A stretch of 37,590 nt of DNA from assembly GCA_031272415.1 (NCBI GenBank), contig JAISTU010000151.1:1-37590 (forward strand), read 5' to 3'. Under the pieces are notes generated by a model. The model searched no databases, had not been told where the DNA came from, and saw nothing but the letters and a program-made list of their open reading frames with translations. The position numbers were made by a program, and so were the translations under genes. The stretch comes from Bacteroidales bacterium (GTDB lineage: Bacteria; Bacteroidota; Bacteroidia; Bacteroidales; WCHB1-69). Shown here piece after piece: positions 1-10,361 of the stretch; the first letter of the stretch is position 1, and every line of letters begins with the position of its first letter.

Positions 1-3000
1 GCATTCCCTACTTCGGCAACAGAATTAAAGACCATATTCATTGTGTTGTTGGAGAAATCCTCGTCAATAGGCAAGCCGAAACGCCCTGATACATAACTGT
101 ATAACAATGTGTCATCGTAAAGCATATTGTCGCCTGCAATATTTATAAAAATAGTGAAATCGTACCTGCCTGCCACCATAATGGGAAAGGCATTGCTCAA
201 TTCAATATTTAAAGTATTACCTGTATTCAAAGTACCACTCTTGATAACCGTGTCTATAGCCATTGCAATAGGTTGTGTAACTTGCAAGTGAATGGTCAAA
301 TTATCTTGCGAAAAATCAAAATTTTGATTCCCTGTGTTAGCAATTTTCAAATTCAATGCTGTGTAGTCAGGCAGACATGTTACATTTCCAAATGAAAGAC
401 CATCTAAAGTGGTGATAGTCAAATTTTTAGCATTGTATGGTATTACATATTCTGTAAAACGAATGTAAGTGGAATCGGTGATTATAATTGAATTGCCTAC
501 TGTATCACTAACTGAAAGAGAATAAATTACCTTACTGCCATAATATTGAGTAGGAATGTGTACCGACCATTTACCGTTGGCAAAACTCATTGGCAAAGAG
601 GTAGAAGTTACGTGCGAACCTACAATGCTTTGTATTTGCAATTGCGGATTAGAGTTGACATATAATGCCCCGCTACCTTCCATGATAACCGCATAAACAT
701 CAAACTCTTGATTATCAATAGTATCTGCAACAAACGGCGTTGTAAACCATGCCAAAGGAGATGCATAAAGTGTCATGCTGATAGTGTCATTCCAATTGAC
801 GGTTTCAGGGACACCGTTTACCATTTCTACCCATACTTTAATTGTTGTAGGTGTTCCGTCATATACAAAATTGCCGACAGTAACATCTTGCATTTCCATG
901 ATACCTAATGAAGGTACGGCAGTCCAAGTAGAACTGCCTTGGTCAATACCATTTTTACTCCATTTGAAAACGGCACTGTTAATATTTGTTTGCCCCATAT
1001 TGACTGCCTGTACTTTAACATAAAACGTTTGATGTATAACTGCTTGTTTTTCAGCAAAATCATTGAGCATTAAATCGGATGGACTTAATTCTACCGTGTA
1101 ACAGCCCAACTGCGTTTTTGCATAACGAGGCATTGCGTCAATATCAACGCTTACTTGTTCATCTTTATTACAAATCAATGCATCATCATATTGCATTTTT
1201 AAAGAAGAAGTAACATCGTTGAAAACGGGTAAAAATCTTACTGAATTTTTATCGGAAGTAACCGTTGTTTGCCATGCTGCGATGGATGTTTTTGCATTTT
1301 GTGCCCATCCTACATTTGTTGGTGCATACATATTGTTATCATCTATATCCCATTGACCGAGATAAGTAATTCCCGACAAATAGATAGGATAAGCCCCCGT
1401 GCCGGTCATAACAATATTGTTGTATTTAAAAATTAAAATATTTGCCGCATTATTAGCAATTTGTACGCCTCTTGGATTACCTGCTGTTGTACCTTCCACA
1501 TAAATAGAATTAAACAAAAATTTACCTTTTGCAGAGGCAATATTCATACCTTGATAATTGCCTGTTGTTCTGACGCGAACTTCATTGTTGATTATCAATG
1601 GTGTGTCAGTAGTATAAGTATTCCAAGAAGTAAAATACATACCTGTTGGACTGGTAATTGCTGTACTGCGTTGTTGAACACGATTGCCAATTATATCTCC
1701 TAATCCATAACCGAGATATAAACCATACCAACTTGTAGTTGTATTGGCGGTGCGACTTAAAACAGTATTATGCCTAACTGCTCCGTCTGAATAAGTGAAA
1801 TATACGCTGTATGAATAGGCATGAGTTACCGTATTGCTGTCAAAAACAATGTCTTTACCACGAGTAAGCGTCCCTGTACCTCCTGCAAAGTTAAAGCCGT
1901 AAGTTCCACCTCTAATAGTGTTTTTGATAAATGAAATATTGCTAACCACACCTGCGCTGCTTGCCTTATAAATGGGCATTATTGCAGCCGTGGAGACAGT
2001 ATCTGCCAAAATTTTGCATTCCCTAACCACTACATTTGTACAAGCACCTGTAAAGTTGATGCCGTAAGTATTAGCCGTTGTATTAGGAAGACGAACCGTT
2101 ATATTGCGGATGATAATATTATCGCTGTATGAAAGCGTAATACCGCTACCTGAATTGCAAATAATGGTAGCACTATCTGCATCCGTCGCCGCAGAAGTTA
2201 ATGTGAGTGAATATCCATTTAATACATTGTTAATGAATGCTAAATTAACATTTTCAGTATAAGAGCCTGTTTGCAATTCAAAAACAACATCTCCGACCGC
2301 CTGACATTGTTTTAATGCCAACACCGCATCGGCAATAGTAGCATAAACACCACTTGTACCAATAGTATAAGTACCACTAAACCCTGACGGACAAACCAAT
2401 GCCGTTTTTACAATCGTATCGTTGAGATGATTATTGTCCGTCAATATTCCCAAAGAGCCGATATTTACTTTCAATGTCAAATTACCTGTTACAAAATTGA
2501 TACCTCCAATGGTTATGGTATCGACACCGCCTGAAAGTAAAGTCCCGTTCCATGTAAAAGGAGTTTGAGCAACATTATTGACTTCCCAATCAAAGGTGAT
2601 TTCATTAACGGTGGTCGTACCTGTATTGACAACGATTACTTTTATTGGTTCTGATTGTGCATTGTAATACAAATTGTTCCAGTTAAGAATATCTGCTACA
2701 AAAACATCAACCCCAGAGGCAGAATTTAAACCGTGATAGCAACCCATACTTGTTACGGTAGAGCGGCTATTTCCCTCCATATCAAAGGGAACTGCTGCCA
2801 ATGAAGGGGTAGCAAAACCTGCGTAATTTGCCAATTCTAAATTTACAGTTGTATCCACAAAATCAGGCAAAATGCTTACCGAATGCAAGTCAGTGGCGAC
2901 CACACTTTGCCAATCGGCTATAGATGTATAATGTACGCCACCAATGTAGCCCACATCTGCGGTGCTATTAAGATTGTTGTAATCAAAAATGCAAGAACTG

Positions 3001-6000
3001 AGTATTGCTACCGAGCCCAGCCAAATAGGGGTTGCTTGTGCTGTATAAGTACATGGAATATAGAAATTGTTGTGCCGACAATCCAAAAATCCACTTTGAG
3101 GAGCCGCAAAAACAATGCCTTCACCTCTATATCCTTTTATATAAACCGAATTATGGAAAAAGCGAACAACACCGTCGCTAAAATCAAATCCTATTCCTAT
3201 CCCTGTGCCGGAGGGAGTTAATTTGATTTCATTGTTGGCAACTAATAAGGTATCTGTATAAGTTGCTTTAACGGCAGTAGGTTGTGCAGTCGCAGCAGTA
3301 CCTTGCCATACACGATTGCCGATAATTGAGCCTCTTGTATAACAGCAAAGAATACCTCCCCACGTCTGGTATGGTGCAAAAGTATTACTGCTTTTGATAG
3401 TATTGTAAGATAAACTGCCAAATGTTGCACGATAAATATAAATACCAAAATTATATGAATTGAGAATCGTGTTGGAGTCAATAATCATATAAGACCATGT
3501 ATTGCCTGTGCCTGCATAAAAATCTATCCCTGACGTGTTACCCTCCAACAGATTGTTGATGATAAATATGCTATCCGAAAATGTAGAATTGTCGGGATTT
3601 TTGATACATGCGCCTGATGTTTGCCCACGTGTAGCAGTAGTGGTCAGATTGCCCAAAATATGACAATCTCTTATTGTTACATCTCTGCAAGCATCTTTGA
3701 AGAAAATACCGTTAGAATTGTTATCGCCATCACTGACATCTATAGTTAATGCACTGATACAGAGGTTATTGCTGTTTCGTAACAAAATACCTGTTGTGTA
3801 ATCATGAATTGTTGCACTATCGGCATTATTTGCTTTGGAAGTTAATGTTAACCGATAGCCATTCATATAGTCGGACATATTGGTCATATCTACACTTTCG
3901 TTATACAATCCCGACTGTAATTTTAAAGCAATATCTCCGCTTACACCACAAACTTTAATGGCGGACAAGGCGTTGGCTATGCTTGGAAAATCAGCATTTG
4001 CATTGCCGATGGTGTAATCGCCGTTAAAAGAAGCATTGCAAATATATCCTGTTACAGTAAGAGTGTCATTTTTCAGATTGTCATCTATCTGACCAGATGA
4101 CAATGCACTGATATAGACTTCTATTTTTAGATTTCCTACCACATAATTGATTGTCCCTAAGGTAATTGTATCAAAATTTCCTGCGGGCATGTTTTTGTGT
4201 ACAACTGTTGGTTGAGATACACCATTGATTTTCCAATTGATAACAACAGTATCTAATGTATTGGCACCGTTATTAAATAAAAGTACTCTGACGTTGTCGC
4301 TTTGCCCTACAATGTGTCCGTCTCGCCAATCAATAATACCCACCAATGAGGCATCTGTATTGCTTCCGCTGTGGTAACAGCCTGCATTGGTCATGGCGGC
4401 ACGACTTTTATTTTCTATATCTACCGGAACTTCCGCCAAATAATGATGTATGCGTCCATTCGACTGTAAAACACTGTAATTGGTTAATTTTAAACTATTT
4501 GGCACATCTACAAAAGCAGGCAAAACGCTGTAAGAATTGTGGTCGGTAGGAACAATCGCTTGCCAATCACTTATGGAAGACACTGCCGCCGCTGCATAAC
4601 CTGCATAATTAGGCGAATACAAATTGTTGGCATCTATATCCCACATAGACAAACCTGTCAAACTATTAATATATATCGGATATGCTTGTTCGGACGGTAT
4701 TACAATATTGTTATATTTCACCGTTACAGGATTGGCAATGTTAAATATCCGTATGCCATAACCTAAACTTGAGCCGATATAAATAGAATTGTACAAAACT
4801 TTGACATTGGCATACGAAAGAAGGTCTATCCCTGCCGAACCGCTTGCATTGCTGAAAATAATTTCATTATTGGCAACCAAACCTGTATCAGTACGATTAA
4901 AATAGGATAACCTTAATCCTGTTGGTCCGCCGATAGCAGAGGAACGCTGTTGTATGCGGTTGCCGATAATCCTTCCACTACAATATTCGCTATAAAAACC
5001 AAACCATTGGGTAGTGGTATTCGCAGTACGACTTAAAATAGTATTATAAGACAAACTTGTAAAATCGGTGTATAAACTCAGCAGGCTGTAAAGATAAGCA
5101 TTTGTAATCGTATTGCTATCAATAACAGTACCTCCTGCATAGGCGGTAGTGTTTAATCCTCCTTGAAAATAAATTCCTGAATAACCGCCATCTACAACGT
5201 TGTGAATAATAGATACATTGGTAGCCAATCCTGTTGTTTCTTTGTTAATACCTTTGACAGAGGCTGTTGTTGTTGTCGGATTAACATATATTTTGCAATC
5301 TCTGATTAAAATATTATTGACTGCACCTGTAAAATTTATTCCATATCGGGTAGCGGTACCTGTACTTGCATTGATTGTCAATGCACGGATGGAAATATTA
5401 TCGCTATTTTTGAGTGTAAAGCCGGCACCTGTTGCAGGCAATATTATTACACTGTCAGCATCGTTGGCAGCAGAAATAAAAGTTAATGAATAACCACACA
5501 AATAATCGTTAATATTGGTCAAATCTACATTTTCTGCATACGAGCCGGAGGCTATATTCAAAGTAACATCTCCAATCATTCCGCAGGAAACAATAGCAGC
5601 CAAAGCATCATTGATAGTTGCATAAGTATTCCCCACACCTACGGATACTATTCCACTCAATGGAGTAATACATGTATAAAATGAATCCGAAAGCGTATCA
5701 TCAAAAGAATTATTGTCGGTAAGAGTGCCTCCGATATTGTCAACCCACACTTTAATATCTTGATTACCAGATACATACTGAAATTCTCCAATAATAATCG
5801 TATCATTGCTGCCCACAGGGAGTGTGCCTGTCCATATTTTGTGTGTTTTGATTGTGCCATTGATAGACCAATGAAGTTCTATATCCGTAAGGGTTGTATT
5901 ACCTGTATTGAGAACGACTGCTTTCAGCGTGTCCGTTTGTCCTGCTGCTGTTCCTATTGGTCGCCAGCCGAAAATATAAATCAATGACGCATTTGCACTT

Positions 6001-8597
6001 TGTGCCGCTATATGATAGCACCCTGTTGTTGTTATATTTTGTCGCAAATTGCCGTTTATATCCACAGGAACATCTGCATCTACAGACGCCCAAAAACCGG
6101 TGTAATCAGACTGCTGTAAATCTTGCGAAATATCTATAAACGAAGGCAATAACCTAAAAGATGTCCTATCTGTGGTTATCGTTGACCTGAAACTATAAAA
6201 CGTTGTATGTTCGGTAGTGCTTGTATATCCAATCACCGTAGGAGCATATAAATTGTTATGGTCTATATCATAACCGCTTACACTTGCAGAAATACTTAAC
6301 GGATATGCATATTGCCCCGCCATCACTATATTGTTATATTTGATAACATAACTGTAACCACTGCCAACTACATATATTCCGACAGGGTGATAAGTTGAAA
6401 CAGTCTGTACTCCACGCAAATAAATACTGTTATTTAATATTTTTGCATTAGAATATTGGATAGAAAGTCCATAAGATGTCGCCGTTCCGTAAAGTATCAA
6501 TTCATTATTGGCAATCACAGCCTCAGATACATATCTGTTGTGATATTCTGTATAAATACCTGTCGGTTGCGTAATATTGGTCGTATCCAATTGATAAAAT
6601 CGATTGCCGATGATGTCTCCTACACAAGACGAAAATTGCAATGGTTTCCATGCAGCAGGCGACCCGATAGTACGGCTATAAAAAATATTGCTTGCACAAC
6701 TGCTCAAATTCGTATTGACAAACATAGCACCGCTCTCATAACCTGTATGAATCGTATTGCTGTCAAAAACAATATTTGTGGCTGTGGTACCATCAAAGAA
6801 ATACACAGGAGCATAGCCACCATCAAAAATATTGTGTATCAAAGAAATAGCATTCAAAGACGCAGTTCCCGCTTTAAATACACCTCTTGATTGTGTACTT
6901 GCTCCGCTTGCAGAATTTGCCAATATATGACAATCTCTAACCACAATATCAGAGCATGTACCCTCAAATAAAATCCCCGCATTGTTGACTGCACCGCTAA
7001 CATCTATGGTCAAAAATTTTACTTCAATATTGTTACTATTGTAAAATCTAACTCCTACCACATTGTTGGTCAAAATAACGCTGTCGGCATTGTTAGCAAA
7101 TGAGGTCAAAGTCAATTTGTGTCCCATCATTAATTCAGAAACTCCCTCTAAATCAATACTTTGTGTGTAATTGCCCGATAAAAAATTCAAATTTATATCG
7201 CCTGATATGGTAATATAATTGAGTGTATTTTTAAATTGTTGCCAATTAGAGAAATAGCCGCCTGTTCCAACGGTATAATCTCCACTCAATCCGGTAACAC
7301 TACTATAAACAACAATCTTAATGGTGTCGTCATTTAATACATTGTCGGTTACACTATTAGGCGAACTTACGTAAGCAATAATTGTGTCAAAGTTGTCGGT
7401 TCGAGGCGTATAATTTCCCAAAGTAACGGTATCGCTCAACTCCCACGAGAGATTGTTTGACCAATTGATTTGAGGTTGTGTAACACCATTAACCGTCCAT
7501 TTGATAACGGCAGAGGTCAGATTGGCTAAACCTTTATTGCGTAAAACCACTTTTACAGGAGTAGAAACACCGCTAAAAGTACCTTTAAGAGAAGGTGAAA
7601 CAAAATTTTCCAATGCCACCGAATGCGTATCATAAACGATAGCAGAATTGAGTGCAACAGTATAATTTGCTATCGCTGTAGCCATATTTCCATTGCCATC
7701 TATCCCTGTAACAGAGTAGGATACATTTGTTCCGAGTGCAACTTGTGGCAAAGTGGCTCTCCATAATGTGTCGCCCCCTAAATTGTCCATTAAAACCGAG
7801 TCAATATGTGTAATGCTGTTGTAATCTGTCCTATATTTGAGATAGGGAGGTACAATGGCAGCAACAGTATTGCTTTTCACTTTGGCGGTAACGGCAACAG
7901 TTTTTCCACTATAAACCGTATCTTGCGGAAAGGGAGCAATAAATGCAACTTCCGGCGGCACAATTTCGCCTGTAGAGCAGGTCAATTCAAAATTATCAAT
8001 CAACCAACCGTAATTGATTTGTGTGCCGTTGATAGTTCCACGTTTGAGCCGAAATCGAAATTGAACTGAATTATCATATCCGACCTCGTAACTGACATCA
8101 AAAAACTCACTCTTCCACCACGATTGTTGTGGCATCATAAGGCTGTCCGCAGACTGCCATTCGACGTATGAAGTAGCGTTGAACCCCCTCAAAGCATAAT
8201 TGCTCGCCGAGCCTTTGTAACTGCTTGTCGGCAAGGGTGTCCAATCCGATGTGCTTGACATCTTGTACTCAACCAATATCGAATCCATTTGAGATACTTT
8301 GCATATATGCTTAAATTGCAATGCAACATAAGCAAAGTCGGTCAAATCGTACACAGGTGAGACAAGAATAATCTCGTCTCCGAGTACATTCGGTACTTCA
8401 GCCCAATAAGAATAAGGTGGCGTTGCGTAATAGTTGCCATTTGCCACCCAACTTTGGGCAGGTGATGTTGTAAATGAAACTGTATTACCGTCAAAATTTT
8501 CGGTAAAAGTCGTTCTTGCTACTTGGGCGAAGCCTGTCATAAGGCTCAAAATCATGCCCACTAAAATAATTGCTAAATGTTTACTTTTTTTAAGCAT
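1..8597 (-). CDS. Giant secreted/cell-surface protein, 3'-partial (C-terminus lies beyond the window start). It has a signal peptide, an N-terminal lectin/MAM-like head, then repeated parallel beta-helix (PbH1-like) and CARDB/Ig-like domains. Probably an adhesin and possibly T9SS cargo.
   Basis: Not in the supplied ORF track, which seems to list only ORFs closed inside the window. The minus-strand ATG at 8597-8595 gives MLKKSKHLAIILVGMILSLMTGFAQ (signal peptide). My hand translation stays open for 2865 codons to the window edge. Spot checks of plus-strand triplets starting at positions divisible by 3 found no TTA/CTA/TCA, and no listed minus ORF uses this frame. The protein is N/G/T/S/I/Y-rich, with beta-helix-type repeats (IIGNR, KYNNIV, DIDxNNLY) and CARDB-like segments ending in DNNxxNDT. 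Confidence 0.85.
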   Translation of the reverse strand, partial: MLKKSKHLAIILVGMILSLMTGFAQVARTTFTENFDGNTVSFTTSPAQSWVANGNYYATPPYSYWAEVPNVLGDEIILVSPVYDLTDFAYVALQFKHICKVSQMDSILVEYKMSSTSDWTPLPTSSYKGSASNYALRGFNATSYVEWQSADSLMMPQQSWWKSEFFDVSYEVGYDNSVQFRFRLKRGTINGTQINYGWLIDNFELTCSTGEIVPPEVAFIAPFPQDTVYSGKTVAVTAKVKSNTVAAIVPPYLKYRTDYNSITHIDSVLMDNLGGDTLWRATLPQVALGTNVSYSVTGIDGNGNMATAIANYTVALNSAIVYDTHSVALENFVSPSLKGTFSGVSTPVKVVLRNKGLANLTSAVIKWTVNGVTQPQINWSNNLSWELSDTVTLGNYTPRTDNFDTIIAYVSSPNSVTDNVLNDDTIKIVVYSSVTGLSGDYTVGTGGYFSNWQQFKNTLNYITISGDINLNFLSGNYTQSIDLEGVSELMMGHKLTLTSFANNADSVILTNNVVGVRFYNSNNIEVKFLTIDVSGAVNNAGILFEGTCSDIVVRDCHILANSASGASTQSRGVFKAGTASLNAISLIHNIFDGGYAPVYFFDGTTATNIVFDSNTIHTGYESGAMFVNTNLSSCASNIFYSRTIGSPAAWKPLQFSSCVGDIIGNRFYQLDTTNITQPTGIYTEYHNRYVSEAVIANNELILYGTATSYGLSIQYSNAKILNNSIYLRGVQTVSTYHPVGIYVVGSGYSYVIKYNNIVMAGQYAYPLSISASVSGYDIDHNNLYAPTVIGYTSTTEHTTFYSFRSTITTDRTSFRLLPSFIDISQDLQQSDYTGFWASVDADVPVDINGNLRQNITTTGCYHIAAQSANASLIYIFGWRPIGTAAGQTDTLKAVVLNTGNTTLTDIELHWSINGTIKTHKIWTGTLPVGSNDTIIIGEFQYVSGNQDIKVWVDNIGGTLTDNNSFDDTLSDSFYTCITPLSGIVSVGVGNTYATINDALAAIVSCGMIGDVTLNIASGSYAENVDLTNINDYLCGYSLTFISAANDADSVIILPATGAGFTLKNSDNISIRALTINASTGTATRYGINFTGAVNNILIRDCKIYVNPTTTTASVKGINKETTGLATNVSIIHNVVDGGYSGIYFQGGLNTTAYAGGTVIDSNTITNAYLYSLLSLYTDFTSLSYNTILSRTANTTTQWFGFYSEYCSGRIIGNRIQQRSSAIGGPTGLRLSYFNRTDTGLVANNEIIFSNASGSAGIDLLSYANVKVLYNSIYIGSSLGYGIRIFNIANPVTVKYNNIVIPSEQAYPIYINSLTGLSMWDIDANNLYSPNYAGYAAAAVSSISDWQAIVPTDHNSYSVLPAFVDVPNSLKLTNYSVLQSNGRIHHYLAEVPVDIENKSRAAMTNAGCYHSGSNTDASLVGIIDWRDGHIVGQSDNVRVLLFNNGANTLDTVVINWKINGVSQPTVVHKNMPAGNFDTITLGTINYVVGNLKIEVYISALSSGQIDDNLKNDTLTVTGYICNASFNGDYTIGNANADFPSIANALSAIKVCGVSGDIALKLQSGLYNESVDMTNMSDYMNGYRLTLTSKANNADSATIHDYTTGILLRNSNNLCISALTIDVSDGDNNSNGIFFKDACRDVTIRDCHILGNLTTTATRGQTSGACIKNPDNSTFSDSIFIINNLLEGNTSGIDFYAGTGNTWSYMIIDSNTILNSYNFGIYIYRATFGSLSYNTIKSSNTFAPYQTWGGILCCYTRGSIIGNRVWQGTAATAQPTAVKATYTDTLLVANNEIKLTPSGTGIGIGFDFSDGVVRFFHNSVYIKGYRGEGIVFAAPQSGFLDCRHNNFYIPCTYTAQATPIWLGSVAILSSCIFDYNNLNSTADVGYIGGVHYTSIADWQSVVATDLHSVSILPDFVDTTVNLELANYAGFATPSLAAVPFDMEGNSRSTVTSMGCYHGLNSASGVDVFVADILNWNNLYYNAQSEPIKVIVVNTGTTTVNEITFDWEVNNVAQTPFTWNGTLLSGGVDTITIGGINFVTGNLTLKVNIGSLGILTDNNHLNDTIVKTALVCPSGFSGTYTIGTSGVYATIADAVLALKQCQAVGDVVFELQTGSYTENVNLAFINNVLNGYSLTLTSAATDADSATIICNSGSGITLSYSDNIIIRNITVRLPNTTANTYGINFTGACTNVVVRECKILADTVSTAAIMPIYKASSAGVVSNISFIKNTIRGGTYGFNFAGGTGTLTRGKDIVFDSNTVTHAYSYSVYFTYSDGAVRHNTVLSRTANTTTSWYGLYLGYGLGDIIGNRVQQRSTAITSPTGMYFTSWNTYTTDTPLIINNEVRVRTTGNYQGMNIASAKGKFLFNSIYVEGTTAGNPRGVQIANNAANILIFKYNNIVMTGTGAYPIYLSGITYLGQWDIDDNNMYAPTNVGWAQNAKTSIAAWQTTVTSDKNSVRFLPVFNDVTSSLKMQYDDALICNKDEQVSVDIDAMPRYAKTQLGCYTVELSPSDLMLNDFAEKQAVIHQTFYVKVQAVNMGQTNINSAVFKWSKNGIDQGSSTWTAVPSLGIMEMQDVTVGNFVYDGTPTTIKVWVEMVNGVPETVNWNDTISMTLYASPLAWFTTPFVADTIDNQEFDVYAVIMEGSGALYVNSNPQLQIQSIVGSHVTSTSLPMSFANGKWSVHIPTQYYGSKVIYSLSVSDTVGNSIIITDSTYIRFTEYVIPYNAKNLTITTLDGLSFGNVTCLPDYTALNLKIANTGNQNFDFSQDNLTIHLQVTQPIAMAIDTVIKSGTLNTGNTLNIELSNAFPIMVAGRYDFTIFINIAGDNMLYDDTLLYSYVSGRFGLPIDEDFSNNTMNMVFNSVAEVGN
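750..7290 (-). repeat. Four tandem, diverged coding modules of about 1.63 kb (about 545 aa) inside the giant ORF
   Basis: Module-start motifs recur at about 7290 (SGDYTVGTGGYFSNWQQFKNTL), 5665 (SGIVSVGVGNTYATINDALAAI), 4030 (FNGDYTIGNANADFPSIANALSAI) and 2390 (FSGTYTIGTSGVYATIADAVLAL). Each is followed in the same order by GYxLTxxSxxxDADS, IIGNR, KYNNIV, DIDxNN(L/M)Y, GCYH and a CARDB-like domain. Boundaries are approximate. Confidence 0.7.
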
Positions 8598-8702
8598 CTT
8601 TACAAAATTTATTTATATATTGTTAAAATTAAAATTACAAAACAAAATTCGATTGATTTTTTACACCAACCGAATAGATATATTGAATTGATATACAGAG
8701 AA

Positions 8703-9008
8703 TTACCTCCACCCATGCTTTGTGGATTTAAATTCATACTTTTGTGTAGAAATGGCATGATGCCGTTTTGTCCCAATGTGGATACAACATCTCTGTCTTC
8801 TCCCTTGAAGAGGAAGCGACAAAATGCACGTAACTGCTTGATAATCAGTACATTGGGGGGGGGGTAAATGCTTGATAATCAGACAATTATGCAACGGTTG
8901 CCGATTTTTAAGTGTAGCAACAACCGCCTCGCCAAAATTTGTGCTATTGAGTTGATTTTCCAAAGCACGTTTGCAAGTGTTTATAAATGTCTGTATGATA
9001 TTTCTCAT
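8703..9008 (-). CDS. Hypothetical 101-codon leader ORF that reads through a C10 tract. It may be a regulatory uORF or a gene remnant.
   Basis: ATG at 9008 lies about 43 nt downstream of a canonical -7 box (9051-9058). The first 48 codons look protein-like (MRNIIQTFINTCKRALENQL...). After the CCC CCC CCC codons the sequence looks low-quality. I recognised no homology. Confidence 0.25.
   Translation of the reverse strand: MRNIIQTFINTCKRALENQLNSTNFGEAVVATLKNRQPLHNCLIIKHLPPPQCTDYQAVTCILSLPLQGRRQRCCIHIGTKRHHAISTQKYEFKSTKHGWR
8835..8882. repeat. G10 homopolymer (8855-8864) flanked by perfect 14-bp direct repeats TGCTTGATAATCAG (8835-8848 and 8869-8882)
   Basis: Read directly: ctgcttgataatcagtacattggggggggggtaaatgcttgataatcag. 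It is the longest G/C homopolymer I saw in the window. Confidence 0.95.
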
Positions 9009-9050
9009 TTTTTTATCAAGTTTATAAAATTAAGATTTTTTACTGCTTTA

Positions 9051-9058
9051 CAAAGATA
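9051..9058 (-). promoter_or_regulatory. Bacteroidota-type -7 box (TATCTTTG on the minus strand). It is the only canonical box upstream of the leader ORF and the giant gene.
   Basis: The plus strand reads caaagata inside ctttacaaagatacac, the same core as the other promoter copies in this window. I found no other CAAAnnTA match between 8598 and 9050. Confidence 0.5.
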
Positions 9059-9101
9059 CACAATTTTTTGAGTTAAAAGTTAAAAAATAAAAGTTGGCTT
9101 T

Positions 9102-10361
9102 TTATGCTTCTCTGTCCATTTGAGCGAATAATTTCACAATATTGACAATTGTATGCACGCATTTTTGCATGCTTTCTACTACAATGTATTCATATTTTCC
9201 GTGAAAATTGTGTCCGCCGGTGAAAATGTTAGGGCAAGGTAGCCCCATAAATGAAAGTTTGGCGCCGTCAGTGCCGCCTCTGATAGGAACAATTTTAGGC
9301 TTTACTCCCGCTTGTTGCATCGCTTTTTTTGCTATATCAACAATGAATTGCACAGGCTCTATTTGTGATTTCATGTTAAAATATTGGTCTTTGATTTGGC
9401 ATGAAATCTTATTATTGTATTTTGTATTTAATTGATTAACAATGTTTTGCAATAGTTTTTTTTTCTCTTCAAATTTTTGTTTATCATGTTCTCTGATGAG
9501 ATAGGTCATAGTTGTTTTCTCAACGCTACCTGTAATATTTTCCAAAAAGAAAAAGCCCTGATAATTATCGGTATATTCAGGTTTTTCGGTGGGGGGGAGA
9601 AGTGTCTCCAATTCTATTGCAATTTGTTGAGAATTAAGCATTTTATTTTTTGCTTCGCCCGGATGTATGTTTAATCCTTCGATAACAATATCCGCTTTTG
9701 CTGCATTAAAATTCTCAAACTCCAACTCGCCGATACCACCACCGTCAATAGTGTAGGCATAATTTACTCCAAATGCTTGAATATCAAACAAATCAATTCC
9801 TGTACCAATCTCCTCGTCAGGTGTAAAGGCAATACCGATTTTTCCATGTTTAATTTGAGGATTTTTGAGCAAAATTTCCATCGCAGTCAATATTTCTGCA
9901 ATTCCTGCCTTATCATCTGCTCCTAAAAGAGATGTGCCGTCCGTGTGAATGATTGTATCTCCTTGATATTGAGTTAGTTCTGGAAATTGTTGGGGCGATA
10001 AGACTATGTTTTCTTTTTCATTTAGCACAATATCGCCTCCATTGTAAGGTGAAACAAAACGTGGATGTTCGCAAATGCCTCTAAATGAGGGAGATGTATC
10101 TAAATGGGCAAAAAAACCGACCGCAGGTATATCTTTGTCCGTATTGGCGGGTAAAAAGGCGGTTAAATAGCCATTTTTGTCTGTTTTCACCTCTTTTAGC
10201 CCCATTTTTTGCATCTCTTTTGACAAATATTGTGCAAAAAACAGTTGAGAGCGAGTGCTTGGACGTGTAGCAGTGGTCTCATCAGACTGTGTATCGTATG
10301 CAATGTAAGTTGTAAAACGCTCCAATAATGCGTTTTTGATTTCTATTTCATTGATATTCAT
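9102..10361 (-). CDS. pepT: Peptidase T (tripeptide aminopeptidase, M20B family)
   Basis: 419 aa, collinear with E. coli PepT motifs: HLDTSP, LLGADDKAGIAEI, AFTPDEEIG, YTIDGGGIGELEFENFNAA, PIRGGTDGAKLSFMGLPCPNIFTGGHNFHGKYE. Confidence 0.93.
   Translation of the reverse strand: MNINEIEIKNALLERFTTYIAYDTQSDETTATRPSTRSQLFFAQYLSKEMQKMGLKEVKTDKNGYLTAFLPANTDKDIPAVGFFAHLDTSPSFRGICEHPRFVSPYNGGDIVLNEKENIVLSPQQFPELTQYQGDTIIHTDGTSLLGADDKAGIAEILTAMEILLKNPQIKHGKIGIAFTPDEEIGTGIDLFDIQAFGVNYAYTIDGGGIGELEFENFNAAKADIVIEGLNIHPGEAKNKMLNSQQIAIELETLLPPTEKPEYTDNYQGFFFLENITGSVEKTTMTYLIREHDKQKFEEKKKLLQNIVNQLNTKYNNKISCQIKDQYFNMKSQIEPVQFIVDIAKKAMQQAGVKPKIVPIRGGTDGAKLSFMGLPCPNIFTGGHNFHGKYEYIVVESMQKCVHTIVNIVKLFAQMDREA

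Follow-up and report, generated by a model that had tools for sequence, protein, structure and literature searches.

A dispersed poly-C cassette family in an uncultured Bacteroidales genome and its proposed role in frame-dependent switching of surface and defence genes

The spacer at positions 8598–9101 of contig JAISTU010000151.1 (Bacteroidales bacterium, GenBank assembly GCA_031272415.1) contains a run of ten guanines in front of the gene of a giant secreted protein. The whole contig of 37,590 nucleotides (nt), in the following called the window, was analyzed together with the remaining genome. The G10 run, which reads as C10 in the sense of the messenger RNA (mRNA), is one copy of a cassette family dispersed with about 30 copies in this uncultured Bacteroidales genome. 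In each cassette, a poly-C tract between two conserved boxes lies in front of a gene. Leader open reading frames (ORFs) entering the tract are maintained in unrelated sequences, and one of the three frames leaving the tract, here named +0, is open to the start of the downstream gene in a non-random manner. We propose that the poly-C length gates translation of the leader and that only the +0 class would carry ribosomes to the gene start, thereby switching the gene ON. We give this reading a probability of about 0.6; for the individual loci, we infer the variation of the tract length, the translation of the leader, and whether it turns the gene ON or OFF.

Layout of the cassette upstream of the giant gene

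In the minus-strand sense, the 504-nt spacer 8598–9101 separates a PepT-like M20 peptidase gene from the giant gene. The window is contig C93 of the genome, here named G000 (2.34 Mb, 36% GC, 229 contigs), and the G10 run is the only G/C run of at least 8 in these 37.6 kb. A preliminary description of the window had placed the run at 8855–8864 between 14-bp direct repeats at 8835–8848 and 8869–8882. All these positions were found again on re-reading, with TGCTTGATAATCAG present at both repeat positions (in minus-strand sense CTGATTATCAAGCA at 8882–8869 and 8848–8835). The features of the locus are as follows, listed in the direction of transcription.

9102–10361, minus strand: M20 peptidase (PepT-like) gene, the upstream neighbour, whose stop is the upstream limit of the cassette
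9047–9095, minus strand: generic promoter module containing the −7 box TATCTTTG (9058–9051), a match to TAnnTTTG
8703–9008, minus strand: leader ORF in the assembled C10 state, 101 codons, ATG at 9008, stop at 8705–8703, out-of-frame (+2) state
8869–8882, minus strand: box 1, CTGATTATCAAGCA, with the dyad core TGATTATCA, followed by TTTA (8868–8865)
8855–8864, minus strand: poly-C tract, G10 in forward and C10 in mRNA sense, the presumed slipped-strand switch
8820–8854, minus strand: box 2 and conserved tail, AATGTACTGATTATCAAGCAGTTACGTGCATTTTG, containing the +1-frame stop TGA (8847–8845)
8637–8675, minus strand: terminator-like hairpin, an 11-bp stem followed by a T-run, between the predicted OFF-frame and ON-frame stops
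8609–8611, minus strand: +0-frame TAA stop, reached with C9 or C12 only, 11 nt ahead of the giant-gene ATG (8597)
3–8597, minus strand: giant secreted-protein gene, at least 2865 codons, running off the contig, with a signal peptide, the presumed regulated cargo

Within 400 nt on both sides of the tract, the −7 box at 9058–9051 is the sole forward one, in agreement with the preliminary description, which had called it the only canonical box upstream of the giant gene. It is located 194 nt upstream of the tract, and no further box is present from the tract to the giant-gene ATG. The surrounding 49-nt promoter stretch (9047–9095) shares 80–95% identity with dozens of other promoter regions in the genome. 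The leader ATG follows 42 nt past the −7 box in an A-rich context.

The ORF from this ATG reads through the tract, and the earlier hand translations for 9, 10, 11, and 12 C were all reproduced. With C10, the translated leader comprises 101 codons and ends at 8705–8703, 105 nt short of the giant-gene ATG. C9 or C12 results in 132–133 codons ending at the TAA 8611–8609, which leaves a gap of 11 nt to the ATG at 8597, and C8 or C11 results in 53–54 codons ending with ...PPP(P)MY at the TGA 8847–8845 (C10 numbering). The chance that the +0 frame of the window is open as far as the TAA 8611–8609 was 0.003 by shuffling. The leader peptide of the window matched no Pfam family, a search of 5.8e9 proteins gave no homologue of it, and an Rfam scan of 8300–9400 returned chance matches to small nucleolar RNAs only.

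A terminator-like hairpin between tract and gene was found in 2 of 20 copies, the window and the copy on contig C221. An intrinsic terminator as a family-wide element was rejected because of this limitation to two copies. The hairpin at 8637–8675 could add an attenuation layer at this locus alone.

The cassette family and its downstream genes

Genome-wide, 43 G/C runs of at least 9 were observed, while 0.78 are expected from composition, and their number is therefore far beyond chance. Most of these runs belong to one element, ...GCTATGCAATTGTCTGATTATCAAGCATTTA-C(8-20)-AACTGCTTGATAATCAAGCAGTTACGTGCATTTTG, of which 28 copies have both boxes with at most 2 mismatches. The order within the cassette is TAnnTTTG promoter, leader ORF, box 1, poly-C, box 2, and downstream gene. 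A forward TAnnTTTG box is located 177–339 nt upstream of the tract in 25 of the 28 copies, most often at about 200 nt, against a genomic background of one such box per kb and strand; nearly all copies are free of this box between tract and gene. The tract is always poly-C in mRNA sense, and every copy is oriented towards a gene.

Box 1 is invariant or nearly so in the 28 genome copies, and both boxes contain the dyad core TGATWATCA. In the preliminary description, the repeats next to the tract had been taken as the scar of a small insertion or duplication. This view had to be given up, as tracts at about 30 loci are bordered by the same pair of boxes, which are therefore two copies of a dyad-symmetric box. 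Local duplication or target-site duplication as origin of the 14-bp repeats was rejected for the same reason and because the boxes of the copy on contig C190 flank a non-repetitive spacer of 21 nt. RNA helices were also considered, either as hairpins of the single boxes or as pairing of box 1 with box 2 with the poly-C in the loop. Such helices are about 78% paired, but were dismissed, since covariation was no better than in shuffles.

Beyond this genome, box 1 was found as exact match in 8 metagenome contigs of other species from 5 other metagenome assemblies, again with tracts of 8–20, while genes common to these contigs and G000 have only about 75% DNA identity. An exact-pattern scan of 185,579 species representatives (one genome per species) detected no copy outside G000. 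In a scan of 40 relatives, G012 alone matched, with a C7–8 tract upstream of a promoter and thus in a different layout.

The paralogous tracts consist of 8–20 C between the same boxes, and the paralogue on contig C55 has flanks 95% identical to the window, yet C17 instead of C10. G/C homopolymers of at least about 8–9 were taken as having hypermutable length. Many copies are located at contig ends, and several contigs begin or end at tracts. Together, the spread from 8 to 20, the pair of C93 (10) and C55 (17), and the contigs ending at tracts are indirect indications that the tracts at these loci may be unstable. Homopolymers are error-prone, and the contigs broken at tracts might also suggest an assembly or sequencing artefact. 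However, the tract-bearing element recurs at about 30 loci here and in the 8 contigs from 5 other metagenome assemblies, and in an independent Logan assembly (SRR14710912) tract lengths were equal to those of the genome at the two comparable loci; other Logan contigs from this run end before the tract. Since two tracts were reproduced independently, the tracts are not assembly artefacts, and the likelihood of an artefactual homopolymer is negligible.

Giant secreted proteins are encoded behind the cassettes of the window and of contigs C138, C222, and C33. The full-length giant paralogues have a sorting tail of the type IX secretion system (T9SS) and a beta-helix, CARDB, or MAM region. The protein of the window shares 29% identity over more than 1300 amino acids (aa) with the C138 paralogue, a protein of 3200 aa with a beta-helix region and a C-terminal sorting domain of the T9SS. 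In the 2865-aa product of the window itself, neither Pfam nor NCBIfam domains were found; the name adhesin used in the preliminary description is an inference. The family of giant proteins is large and uncharacterised, and internal repeats of about 600 aa are visible in BLASTP self-offsets.

Other genes behind cassettes encode T9SS-tailed proteins, outer-membrane beta-barrels, lipoproteins, and FkbM-type and S-adenosylmethionine (SAM) methyltransferases. Further ones encode a restriction-endonuclease-like (REase-ARP) protein and TerB, TM2, and aspartyl-protease proteins. This gene set is the usual content of a phasome, with a bias to surface, glycan-modification, and defence functions. The contingency-locus layout suggested earlier for the window gained support from both this bias and the genome-wide excess of G/C runs.

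Several further sequence elements were noticed. In cassettes of variant d (C16, C80, C129, C140, C171), box 1 is CTGCTTGATTATCAGACAGTTACAAGTTA, a conserved tail of about 100 nt extends past box 2 (...ACACTCCCTATCGGGAGCAATTAAAAATTATCAA...), and the genes behind encode T9SS proteins with a long conserved N-terminal leader (...YCSPAQQVSEVWSGNQKEVEPKKNGKTEVPQSR...). The cassette on C66 begins right after an apparent transfer RNA (tRNA) gene 3′ end (...GGTTCGAGTCCTGTCTCCGCAAC), about 75 nt upstream of the leader ATG, a position which may bear on cassette placement. A second poly-C family, GTTGTGCCATGTA-C(9-17)-AGCGAAAGTCGCTGAAAATCAATTATTTAAGC, is present at C53:12367, C117:2931, C132:6703, and C196:210. 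Here a small paralogous ORF (MLNIGLYGFSIGLIGSAKYG...) follows 45 nt after the tract, which is another layout and may be promoter-proximal. At C51:14059, C64:10817, C114:1854, C133:65, and C203:5556, a further repeat has the same AACTNCTTGATTATCAG box about 40 nt ahead of a short C7–8 run followed by GCTAAATCGTAATGTGTTGATACTCTTTTGTTTACAAATCGAAACCGTC. G023, a genome of the same family and another genus, has many long poly-C runs of up to 24 (loci L100–L107). Locus L103 resembles a cassette, with its −7 box at −201 and a leader ORF. At L104, the poly-C occupies the 3′ end of a gene similar to cytidylyltransferases, and the stop of this gene overlaps the ATG of the next one. Long A/T runs are also over-represented in G000 (19 runs of at least 14, 0.37 expected) and may be further mutable tracts or parts of promoter repeats.

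Reading frames before and after the tract

The leader ATG is found in an A-rich context 24–85 nt past the promoter box, and the ORF mostly extends over 46–57 codons into the tract, which encodes 3–6 prolines whichever frame is used. In 26 of 29 copies, the tract is entered by an ORF that begins with ATG and has 40 or more codons; shuffling gave a per-copy probability of 0.004–0.044 for this. The leader bodies, including those of the metagenome relatives, form 13 clusters without detectable nucleotide similarity, and 10–11 of these clusters retain the ORF. Leader peptides are not conserved between clusters, and no Pfam family was found for the in-frame products. The openness of the frame is therefore conserved and the peptide is not, as is characteristic of a regulatory ORF. 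The possibility of a genuine conserved small protein was considered and rejected, as the in-frame products are unrelated to each other beyond LRAF, which stems from box 2, and had no match in Pfam.

On the other side of the tract, box 2 closes the +1 frame at +7 (TGA, then TAA) in 19 of 28 copies. The +0 frame reads P-NCLIIKQLRAF... and continues through locus-unique sequence. Although the sequence from box 2 to the gene is unique per locus, one frame is nonetheless open to the ATG. With a threshold of 25 nt, the +0 frame of 13 of the 21 copies tested was open to the downstream ATG or fused with the gene, while 2.9 were expected from shuffles (Poisson-binomial P = 4e-17); by the same threshold, the +2 frame was open in 4 of 21. 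In ten copies, the +0 stops are located between 17 nt before and 20 nt after the downstream ATG, with one ATGA overlap, and in three more the frame is fused. This family-wide openness agrees with the earlier claim for the window that the tract length sets the leader frame and that one length class reaches the gene start. In the assembled state, the long leader is in the +0 frame in three copies only (C55 with C17, C57 with C11, C216 with C11).

A tract-less homologue of the window leader is present on C190 (reverse strand, about 5510–5960), with a similar N-terminal peptide (MRKTIHTFVNVNTCKRALETL...) and the same promoter type. It has kept both boxes, with 21 nt of ordinary sequence between them. 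Its ORF is continuous over 115 codons, passes through the two boxes, and terminates about 20 nt ahead of a T9SS-type gene, as if the arrangement of the cassettes were locked here.

These frames also bear on two explanations in which translation has no part. A selfish or neutral dispersed repeat with an unstable homopolymer and no regulatory role, similar to a miniature inverted-repeat transposable element (MITE) or derived from a promoter repeat, would fit a genome which is rich in dispersed intergenic repeats and portable promoter modules, and also the many copies at contig ends. However, all copies face a gene, the locus-unique sequence past box 2 keeps one frame open to the ATG, and the genes behind them show a strong bias to surface and defence functions, so that we regard this origin as very improbable.

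Alternatively, the switch could act at the level of DNA or transcription. The dyad boxes would then be operators of a dimeric regulator, or box 2 would overlap a weak promoter; the poly-C would set spacing or helical phase, and the ORF features would be incidental. The dyad core TGATWATCA in both boxes is in line with this, as are the conservation at the nucleotide level despite two reading frames, the identity of box 1 in other species with genes of about 75% identity, the lack of a covariation-backed RNA helix, and a near-consensus TGCATTTG after box 2 in some copies. Nevertheless, most copies have no TAnnTTTG between tract and gene, the tract lies about 190 nt past the promoter box, and two results are left unexplained, namely the openness of the +0 frame up to the ATGs of unrelated genes (P = 4e-17) and leaders of at least 40 codons in unrelated sequences. 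A switch of this kind is unlikely in our view.

Proposed switch mechanism and comparison with known systems

In the mechanism proposed for the window, transcription would start at the generic promoter (−7 box 9058–9051). Ribosomes would initiate at the ATG 9008 and translate the leader of about 48 codons into the poly-C, resulting in poly-proline in all frames. Slipped-strand mispairing during replication would alter the run length and thereby the frame in which ribosomes leave the tract. In the +1 frame, they would stop immediately at the TGA inside box 2. In the +2 frame, to which the assembled C10 belongs, they would stop 105 nt short of the giant gene, while the +0 frame with C9 or C12 would be open until 11 nt before its ATG. 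Only in the +0 frame would the leader be covered by ribosomes up to the gene start and the gene be ON.

Two routes to the ON state are conceivable, which could operate together: termination-reinitiation, i.e. translational coupling, and shielding of the transcript, which would otherwise be prone to premature Rho-dependent termination or decay along a ribosome-free leader with poly(C) at its beginning. Termination-reinitiation would fit the stop-to-start geometry, as the predicted upstream stop lies within tens of nt of the downstream start. Sequestration of the start codon was rejected as part of the mechanism, since predicted accessibility is the same as for 150 control genes. De novo initiation should therefore be possible whenever mRNA exists, which moves weight to polarity. 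In the OFF frames, 70–370 nt of leader with poly(C) at its beginning would not be translated, and Rho, for which the genome has a gene, could terminate there.

Several results weigh against the gating of leader translation by tract length. The rule of an open +0 frame is broken by 8 of 21 copies, in particular by the variant d subfamily, C152, C206, and C221. The three in-frame fusions would extend the N-terminus ahead of the signal peptide and not permit reinitiation. Most genome copies enter the tract in another frame than the window and the metagenome relatives, with box 1 read as DYQAF in the former and as LIIKHL in the latter. The nucleotides of the boxes are conserved whichever frame is used and also between species, yet no helix is backed by covariation. 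Many copies have a second short ORF entering the tract in the other frame. In those copies, the ON length class is therefore ambiguous, and some loci may have two ON classes or graded states. Ribosomes shift frame on CCC-C runs, which could blur a purely DNA-encoded switch. The species was found in one public run only, where the lengths match the genome at two loci. At their start codons, cassette genes show no more structure than the 150 control genes by predicted accessibility, and the leader past the tract is not C-rich and has no rut-like (Rho utilization) bias of C over G. Because of these last two results, there is no direct support for either reinitiation or polarity.

The tract could also act on the RNA level without frame logic, as target of a G-rich small RNA (sRNA) like the tlpB G-repeat targeted by RepG, as a poly-proline stall, or as a Rho loading site that scales with length. 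It is in fact always poly-C in the mRNA and lies inside the predicted transcribed leader; Rho is present, and 3–6 prolines are encoded in every frame. On the other hand, no sRNA candidate was found, and none was sought; the strong selection on the frames past the tract is not predicted by any of these modes, and the continuous tract-less ORF on C190 is not explained by them. We consider an action of this type quite unlikely.

A wider interpretation is that the cassette is a portable, self-contained phase-variation module consisting of a promoter, a leader ORF without sequence constraint, and the poly-C between its two dyad boxes. Any gene behind it could then be switched stochastically by frame-gated translation of the leader, and the invariant boxes would be sites for a dedicated factor for copying to new loci, tuning of slippage, or global control. 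It would then represent a new modular class of contingency loci and the first repeat-based phasome in Bacteroidales; this we put forward tentatively, as a possibility of low probability. Protein binding, a contribution to slippage, or a part in spreading the cassette are conceivable for the boxes.

A single genome appears to have placed about 30 genes of surface, glycan-modification, and defence functions, unrelated to each other, behind one and the same reusable switch. The N-terminus of each gene is left unchanged, since the mutable tract is part of an expendable ORF upstream. Should this be confirmed, it would mean surface diversification by hypermutation in this organism and a compact design of a stochastic switch for Bacteroidota, which do not have Shine-Dalgarno-driven initiation. 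The approximately 30 copies are also natural replicates for weighing reinitiation against the blocking of Rho by leader translation.

Phase variation in Bacteroidales is known mainly from invertible promoters, and in the literature we found no description of a homopolymer in a coupled upstream ORF or of phase variation by simple sequence repeats (SSRs) in Bacteroidales. The cassette shows features of SSR contingency loci, namely long homopolymers in numbers above chance, a frame change in silico, and association with typical genes. Phasomes of this type have been reviewed for Campylobacter jejuni, Neisseria, Haemophilus influenzae, and Helicobacter pylori (PMC11868660, PMC6321876, PMC5084427). 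As in these, G/C homopolymers are far above chance and tied to surface, glycan-modifying, and restriction-type genes; the tract length sets the reading frame, here in silico, and the consensus sequence of most loci is in an out-of-frame state. Unlike in these phasomes, the cassette tract is part of a separate, non-conserved leader ORF and not of the regulated gene or a promoter spacer, and the cassette packages the tract with dyad boxes and a promoter, repeated before unrelated genes. By its tract in a separate upstream ORF, it therefore differs from intragenic repeats.

In lic1 of H. influenzae, the number of CAAT repeats selects the in-frame upstream start, and graded states can arise from starts in two frames. 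In a similar way, the tract of many cassette copies is entered by both a long frame-1 and a short frame-0 ORF. In contrast to lic1, where the repeats are located in the 5′ end of the regulated ORF, the cassette leader ends near the ATG of the gene itself, and the native N-terminus with the signal peptide is therefore untouched.

For the siaD gene of N. meningitidis, Lavitola and co-workers reportedly described in 1999 that poly-C slippage acts together with Rho-dependent intracistronic termination. Rho attenuation controlled by upstream ORFs such as tnaC is known, as is phase-variable Rho termination by DNA inversion (PMC12360218). Similar to siaD and tnaC, untranslated RNA after a premature stop could admit Rho in the cassette, so that leader translation would decide whether transcription reaches the gene; a gene for Rho is present. 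The siaD tract, however, is inside the gene, and the cassette has no rut-like C>G bias past the tract; in tnaC, the signal is a metabolite, whereas it would be a mutable repeat in the cassette.

Homopolymers in promoter spacers are represented by the C-stretch of fim in Bordetella pertussis (PMC1891110) and by opc and porA of N. meningitidis. These share with the cassette a poly-C/G in front of the gene of a surface protein, and possible protein-binding sites flank the tract. The cassette tract, on the contrary, is found about 190 nt downstream of the promoter box and within an ORF. With a distance of 194 nt to the only promoter box, the tract of the window is therefore no promoter-spacer repeat of the fim, opc, porA, or hif type. 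With leader homopolymers targeted in trans by an sRNA, the cassette has in common a homopolymer in the 5′ leader that would be variable and modulate expression post-transcriptionally. In that case, an sRNA is needed and there is no frame logic, whereas frame conservation is the main signal of the cassette. In the repeat-based switches known elsewhere, the repeat is inside the regulated gene or its promoter; if confirmed, the cassette would add a third architecture to the repertoire of contingency loci.

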